Source: Candidatus Micrarchaeota archaeon
Lineage (GTDB): Archaea > Micrarchaeota > Micrarchaeia > Norongarragalinales > JBBILJ01
Length of the DNA: 24,000 nucleotides
Direction: 5' to 3'
Assembly: GCA_037444945.1 (NCBI GenBank)
Contig: JBBILJ010000001.1
Span: 28,684-52,683, forward strand
Part shown: positions 1,003 to 13,328 of the stretch, piece after piece
Layout: each line of letters opens with the position of its first letter
Numbering within the stretch: the first letter of the stretch is position 1
Translations under genes and position numbers: made by a program
Notes under the pieces: generated by a model
The model's database searches: none
The model's input: the letters and a program-made list of their open reading frames with translations, nothing else
Told to the model about the DNA's origin: nothing

Positions 1003-2505
1003 ATGGTGAATAAAATCGAACTGCGCTGGAAAGCCCTCGCAGAAGAACACGACGTCGCGCCCTACCCGCACCCCGTAGCCTACGTTTACGCGTCCACGAC
1101 ACGCTTTAAGGACCTCGTCGGCAAACCCGAAGCGCCGTGGATCATCGAAAACAAGAAAGGCACCTTCCGCTGGTGCGGCGTCGAATCCACGTGGGTGGAG
1201 AACGCCAAACACGTTCTCACTCTCCTTGAAAATCCAGCGTTCTTTGCCCGAGTAAGCCAGGGGCAGCGCGACAGCGTGCGTGCTTTTCTCGCTCGCGCCC
1301 GCGAAGTGCAGCAAACGGTTTGGCGCGCCGCATCAAACGACGAGCTCGCCACGGGGTACGCGCGCCTCTTCGACGCGTGGATGGAAATGAATGTGTGGGG
1401 ACACGTCGTCCAAGTTATCGACTTTGATCACAATATCTTCACGCAGCAGCTCACGCGTCGCCTCGAGCACCGCATCCGCGAAAGCGGAAGTGGCATTACG
1501 CCCGTAGAAGCCTTCGCTGTCCTCGCGTATCCATCTGAAAAAAGTCAGGTTCAGCAGCAGGAGGAAGACTTTTACGCCCTCCTCACGCTCGCCGCCACGA
1601 GTGGAATCGATTCATCGGTGTTCGAGAAAGCCGTGCAAGCGCACGCGAAGCGCTACGACTGGATGCAGTACCACTACTCGGGACCCACCATCCTTGACGT
1701 CGCCTACTTTCGCTCCCTTGTCGAAAGCGAGTTGAGCCAAGGTGTGAGCGGCGAAGAAAAGCTGCGCGAGATACAGCAACGCCAAGCCTCCCAGCGCGAG
1801 CGTCGCCTCCAACTCATTGACGAACTCGGCCTTGATGAGAAAGACCGCTACTGGTTTGACGTTGCGGGCGCGTTTATGTGCTTTAAGGAAATGCGCAAGG
1901 AAGCCGTCTTCGAAGGCTGCCGCTGTGCGGCCCCCTTCTTTGCCGAACTCGGTCGCCGCCTCGGCGTCACTCCCTGGCTTGCGCAATTCATCGGTCCCCA
2001 CGAAATTCAGGACGCCTTGAACGGCAAGATCTTACGTGCCGAACTCGAAGAACGCGAACGCTTCAGCGTCTACCTCGCCGATGCGAACCAAATTCGCTCC
2101 TTCATCGGCGATGAAGCGAAAGCGTACGCCTCGCGCATTTACTCGCACCAAGCCCAGCTCGACGCCCGCGAAATGCGCGGCAGCCCCGCGTGCGCAGGAA
2201 CCGCGCGCGGCGTCGTTAAACTCGTAGCGAAAGCGGACGACATGGCGAAAATGAACGACGGTGACATCTTGATTTCGCCCGCCACGAACCCCAACCTCGT
2301 CCCCGCCGTGAAGAAAGCCGCTGCAATTCTCACAGACGAGGGCGGTATCACGTGCCATGCCTCGATTGTCTCCCGCGAACTTGGAATTCCCTGCGTTGTG
2401 GGCTTGCGCAGCGTCACGCGTTGGCTCAAAGACGGTGACCTCGTCGAAGTCAACGCCTCGACCGGCATCGTGCGAAAAATAGGTGACACTAATGAACGTG
2501 ACTAA
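1003..2505 (+). CDS. PEP-utilising-enzyme mobile (phosphohistidine swivel) domain protein A, with unrecognised ~400-aa N-terminal region
   Basis: ORF 823..2505 trimmed to ATG 1003 (GGGTGA SD at 992-997). The upstream part overlaps the gene at 516..938. The C-terminal ~100 aa match the swivel domain: GDILISPATNPNLVPAVKKAAAILTDEGGITCHASIVSRELGIPCVVG, with the His codon at 2356-2358. No GGK / VRSS ATP-grasp motifs and no PEP/pyruvate TIM-barrel domain recognised. Confidence 0.8.
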   Translation: MVNKIELRWKALAEEHDVAPYPHPVAYVYASTTRFKDLVGKPEAPWIIENKKGTFRWCGVESTWVENAKHVLTLLENPAFFARVSQGQRDSVRAFLARAREVQQTVWRAASNDELATGYARLFDAWMEMNVWGHVVQVIDFDHNIFTQQLTRRLEHRIRESGSGITPVEAFAVLAYPSEKSQVQQQEEDFYALLTLAATSGIDSSVFEKAVQAHAKRYDWMQYHYSGPTILDVAYFRSLVESELSQGVSGEEKLREIQQRQASQRERRLQLIDELGLDEKDRYWFDVAGAFMCFKEMRKEAVFEGCRCAAPFFAELGRRLGVTPWLAQFIGPHEIQDALNGKILRAELEERERFSVYLADANQIRSFIGDEAKAYASRIYSHQAQLDAREMRGSPACAGTARGVVKLVAKADDMAKMNDGDILISPATNPNLVPAVKKAAAILTDEGGITCHASIVSRELGIPCVVGLRSVTRWLKDGDLVEVNASTGIVRKIGDTNERD

Positions 2506-3976
2506 CTCTTGTCCACACCAGGACTGGGAAGAGCAAGCACGCCGCGGCCGCAACCACGCGATCTTGTTCATTGACGTAGTGGCGCGCGGAGTGAACAGCG
2601 ACCACGTCGGCGAATTCCTGCAAGTCCCCTTTCGCTTCACGCACTACCGACAATTTGCCGCAGCCCGCTGGTTCTTGTCGAGCGAAATAGCTGCGTATGT
2701 TCAACTGCTCAAGGATGAGGAGGCGCACCACCCCGGCTACCTGCTCGGCCTCGCGAACGCGCAATACGCCGTTACAGCAGACGCAGTCGACTGGGCGCAA
2801 ACGCAACTCGGGCGTGATTTTTCGAGCGCGTCCAACGACGAACTCATCGACGTCTTACGAGGATGGGCCAATCGCTTCGAACCCATTTTTGCGGCGTGTT
2901 ACACTTATACCTTCCTCAACCGCTTTTACCCCGACGTTTTAGTCGAAATCGTTTCTCGCCATGAGCCCGACTTCAAACGACAACAAGAAGACCTTCAAGC
3001 TCTCTTTGCGTTAGACGAGCCGTCCGAAACGCGCCAAGAACAAGAATCTATTCTCATTATCGCTCAAGCCGCGTTAGAAACAGGCGGCAACGACAACGAT
3101 GCCCGCATACAGCGATTGATTGAGACCCACGTGCGCCGCTTCGCGCACCTCGGCTTATATTACTTTTACCGCGAGCCGTATACGGCCGCGCAAATTCGCG
3201 AGCGCGTCAACGAACTGCTCGGCAAAGACTTGTCCGCCGAACGCGAAAAAATTAACGCCTCAAAAACATACGTCGACAAGTCGCGCGAAATCATGAATCG
3301 CCTCGGCTTCACGGCCGACGAGCGCCTGGTCGTAGAAACAATCAAGCGATGGGCATTCGTCGCGAACGACTTCGACGAGCAAACCATGCGTATCGTGTAC
3401 TTATTGTGGGATTTTTGGCATGCACTCGCCGACCGCCTCAGCATCTCGTACGCGCAACTCGTCGAAATGACGGTGAGCGAAGTCGAAGGCGCTTTACGCG
3501 CGGGTCGCGTTTCCGAGGAACTCAAGCGCGAGCTTTCTGATCGGTACGAGGACAGCGCGCTTGTACTCGACGAGCACGGCGTCCATGTTTTCGTCGGCGA
3601 ACCCCTTCAAGCGTACTATCGCGAGAACGCGGCAAGAGCGGAATCCTACGAGCATGTGCGCGAGCTGCGCGGCCAGCCCGCCTCTCCGGGCCTAGTAAGA
3701 GGAACGGTGCGCGTGCTCAACAGTATTCACGAACTTCACAAAGTGAAAAAAGGTGACATCCTCGTCGCGGCAGCAACCACGCCGGGGTTTGTGCCCGCGA
3801 TGGAGAAAGCCGCTGCCATCGTCACCAATGAGGGGGGATTGCTCTGCCACGCGGCAATTGTCTCGCGCGAGCTTCAAATCCCGTGCGTGGTCGGCACCAA
3901 AATCGCGACCAAAGCACTCAAAGACGGGGAAACCGTCGAAGTCGACGCGAACAAAGGCATCGTGCACAAGGTGTAA
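2492..3976 (+). CDS. PEP-utilising-enzyme mobile (phosphohistidine swivel) domain protein B (paralog of A)
   Basis: ATG 2492 is preceded by GGTGA (2482-2486). The gene overlaps the previous gene by 14 nt. C-terminus is GDILVAAATTPGFVPAMEKAAAIVTNEGGLLCHAAIVSRELQIPCVVG (His codon 3848-3850). The N-terminal region is colinear with protein A, e.g. an R-G-x-P-A-x-x-G-x-x-R-G-x-V linker before the swivel domain in both. Confidence 0.8.
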   Translation: MNVTNSCPHQDWEEQARRGRNHAILFIDVVARGVNSDHVGEFLQVPFRFTHYRQFAAARWFLSSEIAAYVQLLKDEEAHHPGYLLGLANAQYAVTADAVDWAQTQLGRDFSSASNDELIDVLRGWANRFEPIFAACYTYTFLNRFYPDVLVEIVSRHEPDFKRQQEDLQALFALDEPSETRQEQESILIIAQAALETGGNDNDARIQRLIETHVRRFAHLGLYYFYREPYTAAQIRERVNELLGKDLSAEREKINASKTYVDKSREIMNRLGFTADERLVVETIKRWAFVANDFDEQTMRIVYLLWDFWHALADRLSISYAQLVEMTVSEVEGALRAGRVSEELKRELSDRYEDSALVLDEHGVHVFVGEPLQAYYRENAARAESYEHVRELRGQPASPGLVRGTVRVLNSIHELHKVKKGDILVAAATTPGFVPAMEKAAAIVTNEGGLLCHAAIVSRELQIPCVVGTKIATKALKDGETVEVDANKGIVHKV

Positions 3977-4714: not shown

Positions 4715-5611
4715 TTAACCGTTCACGAGGATGTCGAGAACCGCCATACGCACGGGCACACCGTTCGCGGCTTGCGCAAAATAACCCGCCTGCGGGAGCA
4801 CGTCCACGTCTGTCGCGATTTCGTCCACGCGTGGCAGTGGGTGCATCACGAGCGCATTCGGCTTGGCGCCTTCGAGGGTTTGCGCACTGAGCAGGTAAGC
4901 GCCACGCACTTTCTCGTACTCCTGCGCGTCTGCGAAGCGCTCTTTTTGGATGCGCGTGCAGTAAATCACGTCACAGTCGTCCACCACCAACTCGGCGCGC
5001 TCCTCAACCGGGTTTTTGGAGGCTCGCACGAATTGTGTCGGCATACGCAGCAAGGGGTGCGAGATGAGTTTGATACGCACGTCGTAGTGATTGAGGGCTT
5101 GCAGCAGCGAGTGCACCGTGCGACCGTACTTGAGGTCTCCAACGATTGCGACGGTCAGGCCGTCAATTTTACCAAAGTGTTTTTGAATTGTGTACAGGTC
5201 GAGCAGCGTCTGCGTGGGGTGCTGATTCGCGCCATCCCCCCCGTTCACCACGGGGTGCGTGGCGACTTCCGCGGCGCGTCGCGCGGAACCCTCCAAAGGG
5301 TGGCGGAGAACGATGGCGTCCGCGTACGCGTCCACCATACGAATTGTGTCGCTCAGCGTCTCCCCTTTTTGCACGCTCGTGCCTTCCGTGCCCGAGAAAC
5401 CGATGACGCGTGCGCCGAGACGCTGCGCTGCCGTCTCGCTCGATAGACGCGTGCGCGTGGAGGGTTCGTAAAAGAGTGACGCGACGACTTTGCCTTGCAG
5501 TGTGCGCGTGTGCCCCGGCGCTTCAAAGCTAGAGGCGCGTTTGAATACGGCGTCGAAGTCGGGGCGCGACAATTCGCGCACTGAAATTAAGTTCCCGCCC
5601 TTCGAAAGCAT
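4715..5611 (-). CDS. pyrB: aspartate carbamoyltransferase catalytic subunit
   Basis: ORF 4715..6085 trimmed to ATG 5611 (MLSKGGNLISVRELSR). The upstream extension overlaps the DUF63 gene. Hallmarks present: FYEPSTRTR, HPTQ, HPLPR. A/T-rich gtatttttaac box lies ~45 nt upstream on the minus strand. Confidence 0.9.
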   Translation of the reverse strand: MLSKGGNLISVRELSRPDFDAVFKRASSFEAPGHTRTLQGKVVASLFYEPSTRTRLSSETAAQRLGARVIGFSGTEGTSVQKGETLSDTIRMVDAYADAIVLRHPLEGSARRAAEVATHPVVNGGDGANQHPTQTLLDLYTIQKHFGKIDGLTVAIVGDLKYGRTVHSLLQALNHYDVRIKLISHPLLRMPTQFVRASKNPVEERAELVVDDCDVIYCTRIQKERFADAQEYEKVRGAYLLSAQTLEGAKPNALVMHPLPRVDEIATDVDVLPQAGYFAQAANGVPVRMAVLDILVNG

Positions 5612-5696: not shown

Positions 5697-6560
5697 TTAG
5701 ACGCCGATCGCGATGCGCGTCGCGTCTCGCAAACCAGGACCCAAGCCAAAGATTGTGACGAGGAGGAGGATGTAAATTTTTTCCTCCCGCTCCTCGGGCT
5801 TGGCGAGTTCGCGGCGGATGAGGTAAACTGCAAGGGCGGCGAAAAGGAGCTTGATGAGGTAGAACGCGAAGGGGCCGCCGAAGAAGTCAAAAATCGCGTT
5901 CCCCACCACGTGCTGCTCGAAGTAACTCGTCGCGGGCGTGCCAATGCCGACGCCCACGAAGGTGGCGGCGCCGTCGAACACTTGCGCGAACACCGCACCG
6001 CGCTCCACCCCGTCCGGCGCGGTTTTTGTGAAGAAACGAAAAGCGAACTCGAAGACGCCGAACGCGGCAATTGCCAACCCTGCAATCAGCACGACGTGTA
6101 ATGGGTAGCGAAGGTTGAGGGCGAGGGGGAGAAAGGCGAGAACGGCGAGAATCAGGCCGGCGCGCTGCAGGGTTTTGGGGAACGAGCCGCCGCGTTTTTC
6201 GACGAGTTTGGCGGCTCCCAGGCAGGCGAGAAAGACGAGGAAGACGAGGACGTAAATGTACGGCGTCACGAAGGGGAACAATTCGATACCGAAGATGAAC
6301 ACTTGTCGGGGGAGGAGGGCGGCGTCCACGAGGACGCGTACGAAACTTCCCACCACCACGAACGGCACCACGGCCCAGTAAAACGGTTTGTCGATCTGGA
6401 TGTTCCAGTGCTTGAGGAGTTTGTAGATGACGAAAATCGCGGCGAGTGCAATAATCGCGAGCGTGACCGTGTTCACGACATTGTACGGCGCGTACTTGTC
6501 CGGGTACCGCAACGGGTTGAGAAAGTACTCGTCTAGAAAGCTCGAAAACGCGTCAGCCAT
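5697..6560 (-). CDS. DUF63-family polytopic membrane protein
   Basis: ORF 5697..6749 trimmed to ATG 6560 (MADAFSSFLDEYFLNPL). Seven or more hydrophobic helices. The N-terminal pattern YNVVNT..AII...I.YKLLK...I..D..F matches my memory of archaeal DUF63 proteins. Confidence 0.65.
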   Translation of the reverse strand: MADAFSSFLDEYFLNPLRYPDKYAPYNVVNTVTLAIIALAAIFVIYKLLKHWNIQIDKPFYWAVVPFVVVGSFVRVLVDAALLPRQVFIFGIELFPFVTPYIYVLVFLVFLACLGAAKLVEKRGGSFPKTLQRAGLILAVLAFLPLALNLRYPLHVVLIAGLAIAAFGVFEFAFRFFTKTAPDGVERGAVFAQVFDGAATFVGVGIGTPATSYFEQHVVGNAIFDFFGGPFAFYLIKLLFAALAVYLIRRELAKPEEREEKIYILLLVTIFGLGPGLRDATRIAIGV

Positions 6561-6596
6561 AGGGGAGAAAAACCCCACCAAACCTAAAATAACGAT

Positions 6597-7685
6597 ATGC
6601 TTCGCCTTTCCGCGCGCCGCTCTCTCGCGCTCAGCGTCCCCAAAGCAAACGCGGAGCAAACGCGCCAACGCCTCCTCGACGACGGCGTGCTCGACACTGG
6701 CCTCTACATTCGCCGCGATGAGCGCTTCGTTTTTTTTCCCGTCCGCCAAAAACCCAGCCCACTACCCCCTGGCGCCCAATTTTCCCGCCTCCTCTTCAAG
6801 CCTCTTCGCCCGCCCAAAGGCTCGCTGAAAGAACAGCTCGCCCAACGCGGTTTTAAGGCCAACGAACTCGAGCGCGTCGTCTCCTCCTTTGACGTGCTCG
6901 GCGAGGTTGCTCTCATCGAAATCCCGCCCGAGTTGCAAGCCAAGGAGAAACGGATTGCTGAAATCCTTCTCCAAACGCACCCTCGCCTTCGTCTGGTCGT
7001 CAAAAAAACTGCTCGCCAAGGCGAATACCGCGTTCAGCAACTCACTTCCCTTGCGGGGCACGGCTCGACCGAAACTCTCGTGACGGAGAACGGAGTGCGC
7101 CTTCGCCTTGACCCCGCCAAGGTGTACTACTCCGTCCGCCTCTCCACCGAACGCGCGCGCATCGCCTCGCTCGTCAAACCGGGCGAGCGCGTCCTCGTCC
7201 CTTTCGCAGGCGTCGGTCCCTTCCCCTTAACCATCGCGCGCGAACTGGAGAAGAAAAAACGGGCGGCGCAAATCATCGGTGTAGAACTCAACCCCGCCGC
7301 GGTCGCGTATTTTCAGCAAAATATCGCGCTCAACCACACCGAAAAACTCGTGCGCGTCATTGAAGGCGACGCCAACCACGTCCTCCCCACGCAGTTCAAA
7401 GCGTGGGCGGACCGCATCGTCATGCCTCTGCCGCACTCGGCGCACGAATTCCTTGACGCTGCCCTCGCTGCCGCGGCCGAAGGCTGCGTCATTCACTTTT
7501 ACGGATTCGTCGAGAAAGGTAAAAACGCTCTCCAACCGTACGCGCCGCTCGAAAAAATCGTTCAACAGGCCTGTGCGCGCAACCACAAGACCTGCCGTAT
7601 TCTTCTGCGAAAAATCGTGCGCCCTTACGCGCCCCACACTGATCAGGCCGTGCTCGACGTGCGCGTTACTTCTCGCGCCGCTTGA
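6597..7685 (+). CDS. trm5: tRNA (guanine37-N1)-methyltransferase Trm5 / Taw2-like (Met-10+ family)
   Basis: LRLDPAKVYYSVRLSTERARI, an SAM motif VLVPFAGVGPFPLTIA, a GVELNP motif and IVMPLPHSAHEFL are typical of archaeal Trm5-family enzymes. Divergent from the DUF63 gene with only a 36-nt spacer. Confidence 0.8.
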   Translation: MLRLSARRSLALSVPKANAEQTRQRLLDDGVLDTGLYIRRDERFVFFPVRQKPSPLPPGAQFSRLLFKPLRPPKGSLKEQLAQRGFKANELERVVSSFDVLGEVALIEIPPELQAKEKRIAEILLQTHPRLRLVVKKTARQGEYRVQQLTSLAGHGSTETLVTENGVRLRLDPAKVYYSVRLSTERARIASLVKPGERVLVPFAGVGPFPLTIARELEKKKRAAQIIGVELNPAAVAYFQQNIALNHTEKLVRVIEGDANHVLPTQFKAWADRIVMPLPHSAHEFLDAALAAAAEGCVIHFYGFVEKGKNALQPYAPLEKIVQQACARNHKTCRILLRKIVRPYAPHTDQAVLDVRVTSRAA

Positions 7686-8294: not shown

Positions 8295-8308
8295 CCGCTT
8301 CCCTATTT

Positions 8309-8430
8309 GTGCGTCAGCGGTCATAGGGGAGGGGAGATACCCGATCCCTTCTCGAACTCGGAAGTCAAGCCCTCCTACGATGCTGCAAGTACTGCCGTTA
8401 AAGCGGGAACGCGCGTTGCTGCTGACACTT
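8309..8430 (+). rRNA. rrf: 5S ribosomal RNA (stand-alone, no 16S/23S in window)
   Basis: GCGGTCATAGGGGAGGGGAGATACCCGATCCCTTCTCGAACTCGGAAGTCAAGCCCTCC...AGTACTGCC matches the universal 5S loop B / helix III / loop C core. Terminal helix I: 8311-8321 pairs with 8418-8428. T-runs lie downstream (8466-8469, 8493-8497). Ends are +/- 3 nt. Confidence 0.85.
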
Positions 8431-8527
8431 CTCACAACCCCGTAGCGCGCGCCCTCCACTCGTTCTTTTCGCTCGCTCTCCCTCGCTCAATTTTTGTATC
8501 CTTCCGCTCGCGCGGCGCGTTAAAACG

Positions 8528-8535
8528 TTTTTATA
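8528..8535 (+). promoter_or_regulatory. TATA box (TTTTTATA) for leaderless gene at 8559
   Basis: aaaacgTTTTTATAccc ends 24 nt upstream of ATG 8559, with no SD in between. Confidence 0.5.
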
Positions 8536-8558
8536 CCCACACGCTGTTCCCCTCCATC

Positions 8559-8864
8559 ATGGTGGACGCGAACACGGTGGTTCTCGGCGCCAGTCTCGTC
8601 GCGCTCGGCGCGGCCGCCTGGCACGCACGCGAGCTGCGCGCCCTCGCCGAGGACGTGGAGGCGGGGTATCACCGCGAACTGCGCCGCCTCGTCGCCGCCG
8701 AAGGCGACTTGATGGAAGTGAGTCACGAGCTCGTCTCGCTGCGGCAACTCGCGGCCCGCAAGGCGAGCGTGCGTCAAACTGAAAGCCTCTTTAGCGAGGC
8801 CGTAGAGCGCGTCGCGCACAAACCGCGCGAGCGCGAAAAAGTGCGTGCAACAATCAAACGGTGA
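8559..8864 (+). CDS. small N-terminally anchored coiled-coil protein (101 aa)
   Basis: ORF 8307..8864 trimmed to ATG 8559, because the upstream part overlaps the 5S rRNA. One TM helix (TVVLGASLVALGAAAW) followed by a charged helical region. Confidence 0.5.
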   Translation: MVDANTVVLGASLVALGAAAWHARELRALAEDVEAGYHRELRRLVAAEGDLMEVSHELVSLRQLAARKASVRQTESLFSEAVERVAHKPREREKVRATIKR

Positions 8865-9853: not shown

Positions 9854-10150
9854 TTAAATGACGCCGAGCTTGCGCCCGATTTTTTCGAAGGCGCTGAGCG
9901 CGAAGTCGAGGTCGTCGCGGGTGAGGTCGGCGTTCATCATGGTGCGGATGCACGCTTTGTCTTTCGCCACCATGGGGAATACGATGGGGAGCGCGAAGAT
10001 GCCGGCACCGAAGAGCTCGTCGCTAAACGCGCGCGCCTTGGCGCTGTCCCCCATGACCGGCGTAATCGGTGTTTCGCTAATCCCCGTGTCGAAGCCCGCG
10101 CTCTTGAGTTCTTTCTTGAAGTAGTTTGTGTTCTCCCACAATTGCTGGAC
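9854..10150 (-). pseudogene. kbl: C-terminal remnant (~95 codons) of 2-amino-3-ketobutyrate CoA ligase
   Basis: VQQLWENTNYFKKELKSAGFDTGISETPITPVMGDSAKARAFSDELFGAGIFALPIVFPMVAKDKACIRTMMNADLTRDDLDFALSAFEKIGRKLGVI aligns by eye to the Kbl C-terminus (RLWANARQFREQM...IIPVMLGD...YPVVPKGQARIRTQMSAAHT...IGKQLGVI). The PLP-Lys region and N-terminal ~300 aa are absent. The rest of ORF 9854..10405 is antisense to the tdh remnant. Confidence 0.8.
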
Positions 10151-10450
10151 GTGTTGCGTCAAGTTTTTCAGGCGTTGCGCCCCGGCGGGCGCGCCTCCAT
10201 CCTCGGCGTCTTCCCTCGCGAAGTCAGTCTCGACGTGACGGATGGCATTGTGTTCAAGGGCGCGACCGTGCACGGCATCAACGGCCGCATCCTCTTCGAC
10301 ACGTGGTATACGGCCGCCGCTTTCCTGCGATCGGGCGCGATTGACTTGCGCAAAATCATTACGCACGAGTACACGGGTCTCGACAAAATTAATGACGCCA
10401 TTCAAACCATGGTGTCCGGCGAGAGCGGAAAAGTCGTCGTGTACCCGTGA
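10145..10450 (+). pseudogene. tdh: C-terminal remnant (~100 codons) of L-threonine 3-dehydrogenase
   Basis: LDVLRQVFQALRPGGRASILGVFPREVSLDVTDGIVFKGATVHGINGRILFDTWYTAAAFLRSGAIDLRKIITHEYTGLDKINDAIQTMVSGESGKVVV aligns to the Tdh C-terminus (GGRIAMLGI...[29 protein letters not shown]...PIITHRF...GKV). The Zn ligands and GxGxxG NAD motif are absent. No ATG and no promoter. Confidence 0.8.
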
Positions 10451-10504: not shown

Positions 10505-10807
10505 TTACTTAATGTATTTTTGGAGGAGTTCGACGGCGCGCTTAATCGAGCGGCGGATTTGCTCCTCGCTTTTCGCGCCCGAGCAAATCACTTTCCCGTT
10601 CTTAAAGAGCAGCAGGGTGGTGCCAATTTCTTTCAGACGCATAATTGCGCCAGGGAATTGTTCGGGCTCATACTCCACGTTGTCGACTTCCATCGCAATG
10701 TTGAACAAGTCGAGTTCGACTTCGAGGTTTGCAGACGCGACGATGTTTTCGACCTTAAACGACATGTTGACGCGCTTGTGCGGCTTGCCTGCGGCTTTCT
10801 TCGCCAT
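10505..10807 (-). CDS. single-repeat TATA-box-binding-protein (TBP) fold protein, 100 aa
   Basis: FKVENIVASANLEVELDLFNIAMEVDNVEYEPEQFPGAIMRLKEIGTTLLLFKNGKVICSGAKSEEQIRRSIKRAVELLQKY is one complete TBP repeat (ENIVAS, EYEPEQFPG, GK-V-CSGAKS). It is preceded by a basic tail, MAKKAAGKPHKRVN. Canonical archaeal TBP has two such repeats (~180 aa). Confidence 0.8.
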   Translation of the reverse strand: MAKKAAGKPHKRVNMSFKVENIVASANLEVELDLFNIAMEVDNVEYEPEQFPGAIMRLKEIGTTLLLFKNGKVICSGAKSEEQIRRSIKRAVELLQKYIK

Positions 10808-10840
10808 AACAATTACACCTTCCGAGAGCGGGACTACAGA

Positions 10841-10853
10841 TAAAAATAAAAAG
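10841..10853 (-). promoter_or_regulatory. TATA-like box (TTTTTATTTTTAT on minus strand) for the TBP-fold gene
   Basis: Downstream edge is 33 nt from ATG 10807. GGTG lies 9-12 nt upstream of the ATG on the minus strand. It is adjacent to the 14-nt perfect palindrome GGCTTTATAAAGCC (10854-10867), itself a TATA-like element. Confidence 0.4.
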
Positions 10854-11042
10854 GGCTTTATAAAGCCTCGTTCGAAGTTGAATAAGACGCCCCGCGGCGC
10901 GGTCGGAGCGTATAAATACTTGCGGGGCCGTATTTATTTTCCTTTTCCGTTTTTCGCCCGAAAAGGCCTACTCGCCGTTGTGGGCGAGACTGGCTCCGGC
11001 GCGGGTTTCGGATTGTTGCGTTTTTGGCAGGTGTAATGCAGT

Positions 11043-11321
11043 ATGAAGCGTTCCCACGGAGCCCACAGCAAGGGTAGCCGCAACCTCAAAACCAAGGGTC
11101 GCGTGAGCGCCCTCGCGCGCTTGCGCGAGTTTGAAACGGGCGCGCGTGTACGCATCGACCTCAACCCCGTCTACCTCGAAGGCCGCCAACCCCTGCGCTT
11201 CAACGGGTGCGTGGGCGTCGTGGCAGGCAAGCAGGGCTCCTCGTACAAAGTCGTCCTCAAAGACGGCGGCAAAGCAAAAACCTTTTTCATTCCCAACGTG
11301 CACTTGCGCCCCGCCGCTTAA
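11043..11321 (+). CDS. rpl21e: 50S ribosomal protein L21e
   Basis: MKRSHGAHSKGSRNLKTKGR...F.TGARVRIDLNP...FNGCVGVV..K.G..YKV.L.DGGK.K.F....HLRP matches L21e. GGTG SD at 11030-11033. First gene of the conserved archaeal rpl21e-rpoF-DUF655-ksgA cluster. Confidence 0.9.
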   Translation: MKRSHGAHSKGSRNLKTKGRVSALARLREFETGARVRIDLNPVYLEGRQPLRFNGCVGVVAGKQGSSYKVVLKDGGKAKTFFIPNVHLRPAA

Positions 11322-11367
11322 GCGGCCCCGGGCGCCGCGGAGTTTACCCCCCCTCGAGGCGTTCAAC

Positions 11368-11694
11368 ATGAAGATTATCGAAGAAAAGTACCCGACTTAC
11401 GCGGAACTCAAGGAGATGCTGGAAGAGCGTTCCGGCGAGGGCGAACTCGGGTACGAGCAGAAAAACACGCTCGAGTACTTACAAAAGTTCGCGAAACTCG
11501 ACGTCAAGGAAAGCAAGGCACTCAAAAAGGAACTCATCGAGGCGGGGTTGAGCGAGAAGCTCGCCACGCTGTGCGTGAACCTGCTGCCGCGCAAAGAAGA
11601 CGAAGTCAAACTCATTCTCCTCTACGGCAACGTGGAGGACGCGAAGGGAGAACTCGCGAAAACCGTCCTCAAAACCCTCAAAGGCGCCAAGTGA
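11368..11694 (+). CDS. rpoF: DNA-directed RNA polymerase subunit F (Rpo4)
   Basis: ORF 11131..11694 trimmed to ATG 11368 (MKIIEEKYPTYAELKEMLEE...). ~108 aa helical protein with the E..L.YL.KF pattern of Rpo4. Its position directly after rpl21e is the conserved archaeal synteny. Confidence 0.75.
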   Translation: MKIIEEKYPTYAELKEMLEERSGEGELGYEQKNTLEYLQKFAKLDVKESKALKKELIEAGLSEKLATLCVNLLPRKEDEVKLILLYGNVEDAKGELAKTVLKTLKGAK

Positions 11695-11739
11695 AAACCC
11701 TTCGGAAAGTCACGTAACGCGTGAGTGAGGTGCCCCCCC

Positions 11740-12444
11740 ATGCAGTCCCTGCCGTCCAGTCAACCCCCGCAGAAACGAGAAGCCTACGCCGTCGTCCTCG
11801 ACTACCTGCCCTCCGGCAAAGCCGGCGAAGCAGAGCGCTTCCCCTTAGCGCAAGTCGTGGGTGACACATTCTTCACGCTCCTCGAAGTCGCCCTCAAGCC
11901 CGGCGTCCAAGTCAACGTCGGCGACCGCCTCTACATCGGACCCGAAGACCGCCCGCATGTGGACCGCATCAAGGGCCGCGTTTCGTACGCGGAACTCACA
12001 CGCCAAGCCCAGAACGAAGTCGAAACGGCGGTCCGCAAAATCGTGCAGTCCCGCGAAGCCGACTTCGTGAACTTCCTCAACAAGGCGGGCGCCATCAACA
12101 TCCGAACGCACTCCCTCGAGCTGCTTCCCGGCATCGGCAAAAAGCACCTCGAAGAGCTCGTCGCCATCCGCGAAAAAGACCCGTTTAAGAGCTTCGCGGA
12201 CGTCCACGCCCGCATTCCCACCATCGGCCACCCCGAAGACTTGTTCGTGAAACGCATCGTCGAAGAACTCAAAGGCTTGGAGAAGTACTACTTCTTCGCC
12301 AAACAACCCAGCCGCGAAATCGAAGAGCGCGAACACGGCGGCGGATCGAGTGGGTACTCCGGCCGATACGGTTCGGGCGGCGGGTACGGCAACCGCACCT
12401 ACTCGCACGGCGGTCCCGGCGGCTACGGCGGCCGACGCTACTAA
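11740..12444 (+). CDS. DUF655-family protein (OB + helix-hairpin-helix) with Gly/Tyr/Ser/Arg-rich C-terminal tail
   Basis: GAGGTG SD at 11726-11731, then ATG 11740. AYAVVLDYLPSGK...FTLLEVALKPGV...RIKGRVSYAELT...FVNFLNKAGAINIRTHSLELLPGIGKKH matches DUF655. Conserved position between rpoF and ksgA. The last ~37 aa are HGGGSSGYSGRYGSGGGYGNRTYSHGGPGGYGGRRY. Confidence 0.8.
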   Translation: MQSLPSSQPPQKREAYAVVLDYLPSGKAGEAERFPLAQVVGDTFFTLLEVALKPGVQVNVGDRLYIGPEDRPHVDRIKGRVSYAELTRQAQNEVETAVRKIVQSREADFVNFLNKAGAINIRTHSLELLPGIGKKHLEELVAIREKDPFKSFADVHARIPTIGHPEDLFVKRIVEELKGLEKYYFFAKQPSREIEEREHGGGSSGYSGRYGSGGGYGNRTYSHGGPGGYGGRRY

Positions 12445-12512
12445 CTCTTTTCATCTTTCTTTGCTCTTTTAATTTCCCGCCCCACTGCTTAGTTCAACCG
12501 TTGATTGAATCC

Positions 12513-13328
12513 ATGTTTTCTCCCCGCGTGCGCCTCAAAAAGCGCTTCAGCCAAGTCCTGCTCACGGACGCGGCCGTCCTCGAACTCATCACCACTACGC
12601 TCCCCATCCGAGGCAAAACGGTTCTCGAAATCGGTCCCGGCACCGGCAACCTCACCGAGTGGCTGCTGCAAGCAGGCGCGAAAGTCGTGGCAATCGAGAA
12701 GGACGTCGAGATGGCGAACGCGCTGCGCGAACGCTTCGGCGAGCGCCCCAAAAACCTCAAAGTCGTGCTCGCGGACGCCCTCCAAGAAGACCTCTCCGCA
12801 TTCGGCGCGCGCACCTACTTCGGCAATCTGCCTTACAATATCTCTTCTCCGTTGTTGCTCCACATTTTGGAGAGCGATTTCGACGAAGCCTTGCTGTTGC
12901 TGCAAAAAGAGTTCGCCGACAAACTCTGCGCCCCGCCTGGCTCTCCCCAGCACTCGCGTTTGAGTGTCGCCGCGCAGAACCGCGCGCGCGTCGAGATCGC
13001 GCTTCCCGTCAACCGTCTCTCCTTTACTCCCGTCCCGCGCGTGGATAGCGCTCTCGTCTACATCAAACGGTTTAAGCGAAAGCAACGCGCCCTCGATGAT
13101 GAACTCGTCAACTTGCTCTACCAGCACAAGAAGCAAGACGTTCGCAAGGCGTTGCTTTCAAGCGCGCACGCGTTCGGTGCTGAGAAGAAAGAGTGGCGCG
13201 AAAAAATCGAGCGCGTCCTCCCCGCTGAACTGCTCCACCGCAAAGTCTTCTCCCTCTCTATGGACGAGCTCGCCGCCCTCACCACTCAAGTAAAGGCGCT
13301 CGCCGCGAAAAAGACTGGAAAAAACTAG
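12513..13328 (+). CDS. rsmA: 16S rRNA (adenine1518/1519-N6)-dimethyltransferase KsgA/Dim1
   Basis: KKRFSQVLLTD, SAM motif VLEIGPGTGNLT and the FGNLPYNISSP catalytic motif. TATA-like TTTTAATTT at 12466-12474. An alternative leaderless TTG start at 12501 cannot be excluded. Confidence 0.9.
   Translation: MFSPRVRLKKRFSQVLLTDAAVLELITTTLPIRGKTVLEIGPGTGNLTEWLLQAGAKVVAIEKDVEMANALRERFGERPKNLKVVLADALQEDLSAFGARTYFGNLPYNISSPLLLHILESDFDEALLLLQKEFADKLCAPPGSPQHSRLSVAAQNRARVEIALPVNRLSFTPVPRVDSALVYIKRFKRKQRALDDELVNLLYQHKKQDVRKALLSSAHAFGAEKKEWREKIERVLPAELLHRKVFSLSMDELAALTTQVKALAAKKTGKN

Follow-up and report, generated by a model that had tools for sequence, protein, structure and literature searches.

TBP, the TATA-binding protein, is a textbook pseudo-symmetric protein: the canonical saddle is built of ten strands from two covalently linked repeats, and the protein is thought to have descended from a homodimer. 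To our knowledge, the single-repeat stage of TBP evolution has so far been hypothetical. Brindefalk et al. (2013) found monopartite TBP-domain proteins only in Halobacteria (TbpA) and Thermococcales (PMC3597702). TbpA of Halobacterium coexists with very similar full-length TBPs and was reported not to be essential (PMC3597702). The Thermococcales proteins, of ~91-97 aa (P. furiosus NP_578195), also coexist with a normal TBP; they form a separate cluster and are only distantly TBP-like, with, for instance, 14 positives over a 25-residue local alignment (PMC3597702). In a structural paper of 2026 (PMC12917281), the monopartite TBP is still a hypothetical prototype whose form is drawn by inference from RNase HIII. 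We found no description of a one-repeat TBP of Micrarchaeota or DPANN in the literature searched, an earlier mention elsewhere being possible, and two DPANN genomics papers list no TBP, K03120 or PF00352 entries in their supplements.

The window, meaning the whole 24-kb stretch of DNA analysed here, encodes a 100-aa protein (Table 1) whose residues 16-98 match positions 1-85 of the 85 in PF00352, with an E value of 1.6e-29 and a score of 102 bits against a cut-off of 22.9 bits. Given this end-to-end match, the protein is a single complete TBP repeat and nothing more, and a six-frame HMM search detected no second repeat in the 24-kb window. The NCBIfam TBP models score it at 61-93 bits, against full-length cut-offs of 181-347 (93 versus 255 in one example), and align to it through either their first or their second half. 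Its 35 best PDB sequence matches are all TBPs (E down to 1e-39, for 1mp9), and each aligns twice, once per repeat. Canonical TBP is defined by two repeats, and this protein has one only. An exact-sequence look-up returned no identical record. The earlier note had described a complete stand-alone TBP repeat in a 100-aa product, preceded by a basic Lys/Arg tail; the PF00352 match bears out the former, and the latter is present in the sequence and kept across the family. Its gene span of 10505-10867 holds for the coding sequence only as far as 10807, the end coordinate having taken in the promoter region, and its view that the repeat is closest to the C-terminal repeat of TBPs gives way to about equal matches with N and C repeats in the NCBIfam and PDB alignments.

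The AF2 model of the protein, made with a 77-sequence alignment (pLDDT 87.8), has its elements in the order S1-H1-S2-S3-S4-S5-H2 and a disordered tail. All 44 of its best, significant Foldseek matches in the PDB are TBPs, with rmsd values of 0.9-1.6 Å to archaeal repeats and ~1 Å to the repeats of 1mp9, 2z8u and 1ais. With the canonical archaeal TBPs used as references, those of Pyrococcus woesei (1PCZ/1AIS), Sulfolobus acidocaldarius (1MP9) and Methanocaldococcus jannaschii (2Z8U), the protein thus shares the repeat fold; it is 40-45% identical to either repeat and has both kinking phenylalanines, the S1 asparagine, the EYEPEQFPG stirrup and the genomic position of TBP in related DPANN lineages. 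Unlike them, it has one repeat per polypeptide, a basic N-terminal tail and no inter-repeat linker. With one repeat per polypeptide, the saddle must come from two chains and would be exactly symmetric, which upholds the earlier expectation that this protein needs to pair with a second repeat to form one.

The described monopartite proteins resemble this one to different degrees. Like halobacterial TbpA, it consists of one repeat on its own and groups with genuine TBP repeats; unlike TbpA, it belongs to a family that spans at least one Micrarchaeota order, is encoded at the canonical TBP locus and evolves under very strong constraint. The Thermococcales proteins are similar in size and likewise have a single TBP-like domain, but the strength of the match to the TBP profile and the identity to archaeal repeats given above set the window protein apart from that cluster. 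The TBP-like domains of RNase HIII and of DNA glycosylases have the same single helix-grip fold, but inside multidomain enzymes and with very distant sequence, and neither is among the significant matches of the window protein in the Pfam, PDB sequence and Foldseek searches.

Judged by its sequence, the gene carries the signals expected of an expressed gene (Table 1). The A/T-rich box, the GGTG motif and the T7 run that had been pointed out before are all present and recur across the family: (A)GGTG stands at a similar distance from the TBP start in most related loci, and the T7 run is presumably an oligo-T termination signal of the archaeal type. Upstream of the gene, the octamer TTTATAAA is the sole copy in the 24-kb window. 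Across 784 kb of related loci, 29 of 40 TTTATAAA octamers lie within 230 nt upstream of a TBP gene, and these upstream regions make up 1.8% of the sequence searched. Direct octamer counts replaced a Markov-corrected 10-mer enrichment, meant for a genome-wide TATA consensus, which was dominated by conserved genes. The palindromic element CTTTATAAAG, with at most 1 mismatch, is found in this 230-nt stretch in 25 of 59 loci; it is ~40-fold concentrated in the TBP/L21e intergenic region relative to the remainder of the loci, often in two copies there. It precedes TBP in L005, L006, L009, L011, L021, L025, L034 and L049, among others, and also in L064, L066, L068, L071 and L073. A symmetric TATA element before the gene of a symmetric TBP suggests a strong, autoregulated or bidirectional promoter. 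The TBP-L21e intergenic region further contains an inverted repeat of 8 bp with a 10-nt spacer, ATAAATAC (10912-10919) and GTATTTAT (10930-10937), which amounts to two TATA-like boxes in opposite orientation, some 105-130 nt upstream of where L21e starts. The TBP gene and its immediate surroundings gave no match in Rfam and tRNA scans.

Table 1. Features of the one-repeat TBP locus, in window coordinates.
Feature	Position	Strand	Basis
Kbl (glycine C-acetyltransferase) C-terminal fragment, profile 281-385/385	9854-10174	-	
Tdh (L-threonine 3-dehydrogenase) C-terminal fragment, profile 243-338/340	10142-10450	+	
T7 run, 18-24 nt past the TBP stop codon	10481..10487	-	sequence
One-repeat TBP CDS, stop codon included; 100 aa, ATG start	10505..10807	-	ORF list
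TBP repeat proper, residues 16-98 (S1-H1-S2-S3-S4-S5-H2)	10514..10762	-	Pfam envelope, model secondary structure, 77-sequence alignment
Lys/Arg-rich N-terminal tail MAKKAAGKPHKRVN, predicted disordered	10766..10807	-	family alignment, pLDDT ~50 for residues 1-10
GGTG, Shine-Dalgarno-like, 8 nt before the ATG	10816..10819	-	sequence
Perfect 14-bp palindrome GGCTTTATAAAGCC, centre ~53 nt upstream of the ATG	10854..10867	.	sequence
TATA-like octamer TTTATAAA within the palindrome GGCTTTATAAAGCC	10857..10864	.	sequence
L21e-Rpo4-DUF655-KsgA block, divergent from the TBP gene	11043..13328	+	
L21e	11043-11321	+	Pfam
Rpo4/RpoF	11368-11694	+	Pfam
DUF655	11725-12444	+	Pfam
KsgA/Dim1	12501-13328	+	Pfam

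The gene is one of a large family. A homology search returned 958 homologues of the protein, and 98 of the best 120 are 91-116 aa long, contain one repeat and are 76-90% identical to it; these one-repeat members come from MAGs labelled Micrarchaeota, Micrarchaeia or Norongarragalinales. A GTDB scan with six exact 8-mer peptides found 366 relatives among 185,579 species-representative genomes, and loci were taken from the best 80 of the 366. The 60 best loci all encode one-repeat proteins, 76-92% identical to the window protein (92% in the closest species representative; the window's own genome is not in this set), and the 8 kb flanking the TBP gene in each direction contain no second repeat. 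A survey of relatives for ~100-aa TBP-fold ORFs, which the earlier note had called for, has thus found them, at 95-116 aa, in at least 60 species-level Micrarchaeota genomes, Norongarragalinales included. The main family includes Norongarragalina meridionalis LFW-144_1 (MAG names in PMC8561730), whose order Norongarragalinales has been placed as sister to all other Micrarchaeia (PMC8561730). In a search of 1.84 billion representatives, the one-repeat family forms one cluster. More divergent one-repeat genes, 53-63% identical, occur in Gugararchaeum (L064), in Burarchaeum (L066, L073), in the complete genome of Fermentimicrarchaeum limneticum (L078) and in some Iainarchaeum/Diapherotrites-labelled MAGs (L069, L077, L083). 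A Lys/Arg-rich N-terminal tail of variable length is found in essentially all 98 aligned family members. The window protein has an internal methionine, Met15, where other members have Leu, Thr or Val; since it is not conserved, the annotated start is correct. One locus labelled Marsarchaeota (L054, JAMCXP01) combines a main-family gene with Micrarchaeota-type synteny and is probably mislabelled.

Gene order places the family at the locus of canonical TBP. The divergent L21e-Rpo4-DUF655(-KsgA) arrangement seen in the window stands beside the one-repeat TBP gene in about 50 of 60 main-family loci, and in L001 too. Two-repeat TBPs occur at the same position beside the L21e block in L002 (Anstonellaceae), in L003 (a Diapherotrites MAG) and in four more Micrarchaeota MAGs (L065, L067, L071, L080). 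As it shares the L21e-Rpo4-DUF655-KsgA position with these two-repeat TBPs, the one-repeat gene is TBP's positional orthologue rather than an additional copy at another site.

Several further features of the window are recorded here in their own right. On the other side of the TBP gene, genes for a Trm5/TYW2 methyltransferase and a DUF63/AliA_AliB membrane protein, in divergent orientation, are shared by the window (5697-7685) and L001 (10043-11982; Norongarragalinales), and the intervening genes differ. A stand-alone 5S rRNA gene lies at 8313-8427 on the plus strand (Rfam RF00001, 71.8 bits), and the ORF overlapping it at 8307-8864 is probably at least partly spurious. The tRNA scan detected no genes anywhere in the 24 kb. 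Two adjacent ORFs, 823-2505 (+, 560 aa) and 2483-3976 (+, 497 aa), match Pfam only in a C-terminal PEP-utilising mobile domain, the remainder of each having no family match.

The one-repeat TBP is far more constrained than the adjacent ribosomal-protein and RNA-polymerase genes. Across loci, identity is 76-92% for TBP and 39-58% for L21e, 31-58% for Rpo4, 46-61% for DUF655 and 34-52% for KsgA. Over 1,711 pairs of family members, from genomes of 34 to 61% GC, the median pN is 0.10 and the median pS 0.79, the latter saturated. The 77-sequence alignment has 34 invariant columns, among them N21 in ENIVAS (S1), F51 in EQFPG, F68 in LLFKNG and the whole stirrup EYEPEQFPG (E45-G53). We take F51 and F68 to be the DNA-kinking phenylalanine pair, counterparts of yeast F99/F116 and F190/F207, and N21 is presumably the minor-groove asparagine of S1, equivalent to yeast N69/N159. 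The stirrup is identical to that of repeat 2 of P. woesei TBP (1AIS alignment) and would contact TFB/TFIIB. The unusual conservation may reasonably be put down to homodimerisation, in which one sequence would have to meet the constraints that two halves share in a two-repeat TBP.

How does this repeat relate to those of two-repeat TBPs? In a bootstrapped NJ tree of repeats from an 86-column alignment, the one-repeat family falls outside both N- and C-repeats, with 3-43% bootstrap at the deep nodes. The window repeat is 38-63% identical to N or C repeats alike, and the profile scores are similar. The main one-repeat family is monophyletic (97% bootstrap), and the DPANN repeats form one clade (90%). 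That clade also includes the two-repeat TBPs of Anstonellales and other Micrarchaeota (P0343, L071), which share the locus and are 49-63% identical to the window protein per repeat, but in which the repeats are covalently fused. Within the two-repeat proteins, the N and C repeats of L080 are mutual closest relatives (79% bootstrap), as are those of L071 (67%), and this pairing within a lineage speaks for duplication or gene conversion in the recent past. In the group of P0001 and L003 (the latter from the Diapherotrites MAG), by contrast, a single clade unites the N repeats (97%), and the C repeats group apart from it (51%).

Repeat number and repeat similarity appear to be fluid in these archaea. 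Within 115 two-repeat TBPs of Micrarchaeota-type lineages, N and C repeats share 44-91% identity (median 66%), compared with 42-54% in the TBPs of S. acidocaldarius, M. jannaschii and P. woesei. Identities of 70-91% (P0343, P0291, P0283 and P0288; loci L071, L080, L065 and L067) imply a recent internal duplication or gene conversion. The pS between repeats of one gene, 0.41-0.52 in L071, L065 and L067, is below the 0.79 between orthologues of different species. One contig of a Fermentimicrarchaeum-like MAG (L075) has two one-repeat genes in tandem, at 5133-5462 and 6411-6737, ~1 kb apart; they are nearly identical (pN 0.018, pS 0.086), have similar upstream regions, and stem either from a gene duplication of very recent date or from an assembly artefact. 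Together, these sequence comparisons suggest that the group has repeatedly undergone duplication-fusion, gene conversion and/or the loss of a repeat through recombination, and the one-repeat form of the window's family may be a retained ancestral state or a secondary reduction. There are also putative chains with three TBP repeats, which may be fusions, misassemblies or eukaryotic, in P0122, P0277, P0302, P0309 and P0330 (272-289 aa) and in P0121 (376 aa), P0128 (702 aa) and P0148 (329 aa). The first two repeats of P0122 are almost identical, and some three-repeat representatives have four matched stretches. Long, extremely Lys-rich tails occur in two-repeat TBPs of the P0001/L003 group, as in P0273 (N-terminal, ~45 aa) and P0281 (C-terminal, ~85 aa). 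Such basic extensions seem to recur in the group, and the one-repeat family may carry a short form of them in its own tail.

So, is this gene the TBP of its organism? We consider it likely, with a probability of about 0.68, that it encodes the general transcription factor TBP in a one-repeat form that would act as a homodimer. A ten-stranded saddle would arise by S1-S1 pairing of two identical subunits, each providing one DNA-kinking phenylalanine pair (F51, F68) and one EYEPEQFPG stirrup. Such a homodimer would be truly two-fold symmetric, could bind a TATA box in either orientation and would offer a TFB-binding stirrup on both sides. With a symmetric saddle and a stirrup on either side, TFB and the BRE would have sole control of the direction of transcription. 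Identical halves seem feasible, since natural two-repeat relatives have repeats that are up to 91% identical. The extreme case, P0343, served as a proxy for the one-repeat homodimer: its AF2 model is a canonical saddle (pLDDT 95) with a TM of about 0.9 to both DNA-bound and free TBPs, which indicates that near-identical halves of this clade can build both sides of the saddle. The basic N-terminal tail would sit where two-repeat TBPs have their basic inter-repeat linker, and probably adds non-specific DNA contacts or stabilises the dimer.

The surroundings of the gene call for a different explanation to be weighed, that it is a functionless remnant of a two-repeat TBP, truncated by a deletion like the one behind the neighbouring tdh and kbl fragments. 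These fragments, noted before, are real. They lie 55 nt past the TBP stop codon, stand head-to-head with an overlap of ~30 nt, and, as both lack the N-terminal two-thirds or more, look like the pseudogene scar of one deletion. Moreover, full-length TBPs are indeed found at the syntenic L21e position in related lineages. However, the gene itself is no dead remnant: its pN of 0.10 and pS of 0.79 are those of a conserved sequence under strong purifying selection, its start codon, ribosome-binding motif, promoter element and terminator are all intact, and no remains of a repeat are left in the flanking gaps (235 bp upstream, 54 bp downstream). The earlier note had also considered truncation in connection with the scar, and here the family speaks against it. 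The same tailed one-repeat architecture is present in at least 60 species-level genomes, and the tdh fragment, the one fragment tested, is absent from all 83 related loci examined. With this spread, the purifying selection and the intact signals, the reading as a truncated remnant is effectively refuted and retains hardly any of our credence.

A functional gene could still be something other than the TBP. In the main rival reading it is an accessory paralogue in an organism whose two-repeat TBP is encoded elsewhere, and might modulate transcription, for instance through competition for TATA boxes or TFB, or have another nucleic-acid-binding role, as has been suggested of Halobacterium TbpA. 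Full-length TBPs are present alongside every monopartite TBP-domain protein described before (PMC3597702). Also consistent with this, the divergent one-repeat genes of Iainarchaeota-labelled MAGs (L068, L069, L077, L083) lie off the L21e locus, where other Diapherotrites-labelled genomes hold a two-repeat TBP; and as the scan covered six exact 8-mers and its best 80 matches, a divergent canonical TBP may exist elsewhere in the genomes. We nonetheless judge an accessory role unlikely, because of the gene's place at the canonical TBP locus and its conservation, which exceeds that of the adjacent L21e and Rpo4. The same two facts, position and a constraint far above that of the neighbouring genes, make the alternative or competitor factor envisaged in the earlier note less likely. 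The most similar two-repeat proteins all come from other lineages and stand at the same locus where the context is known, so they are orthologues, not paralogues. Among the matches listed, no second match occurs on one-repeat contigs of 1.30 Mb, 1.18 Mb (a complete genome) and 452 kb, and the order labels are disjoint, with one repeat in Norongarragalinales and two in Anstonellales; in a weak comparison, no contig is common to the one-repeat and two-repeat match lists. A split TBP, in which the protein would pair with a different one-repeat subunit encoded elsewhere, would fit the two one-repeat genes of L075 and the two contigs with family members (L021, L034) of MAG JAZDKC01. We think it quite improbable. 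The near-identity of the L075 copies marks them as a recent duplication rather than differentiated subunits, and L021 is identical to L022 of another MAG, which suggests that JAZDKC01 is a binning mixture. Of 60 main-family assemblies, 59 show a single copy among the matches listed, with no partner within 8 kb on either side in any of them.

The interpretation as a homodimeric one-repeat TBP can be carried further. The one-repeat protein may be the sole TBP of Norongarragalinales, Gugararchaeales, Burarchaeales and Fermentimicrarchaeales, and a true homodimer, with the two-repeat TBPs of neighbouring lineages being recent, independent duplication-fusions; we give this extended version even odds. 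If it holds, the tandem pair of L075 would be an intermediate, the one-repeat protein would be a living example of the postulated ancestral state of TBP, and the founding event of TBP would have been replayed several times and could be studied in extant organisms.

NCBI records name the one-repeat TBPs "hypothetical protein", and because pipelines annotate them in this way, Micrarchaeota may wrongly seem to be without a TBP. Through a one-repeat TBP, the architecture presumed for the ancestor of the protein could be studied by experiment. If this lineage transcribes its genes with it, it would become testable whether initiation can be directional with a perfectly symmetric TBP, what share of promoter polarity TFB and the BRE provide by themselves, what was gained when the repeats fused and diverged, and why a sequence that has to play both roles is so strongly conserved.
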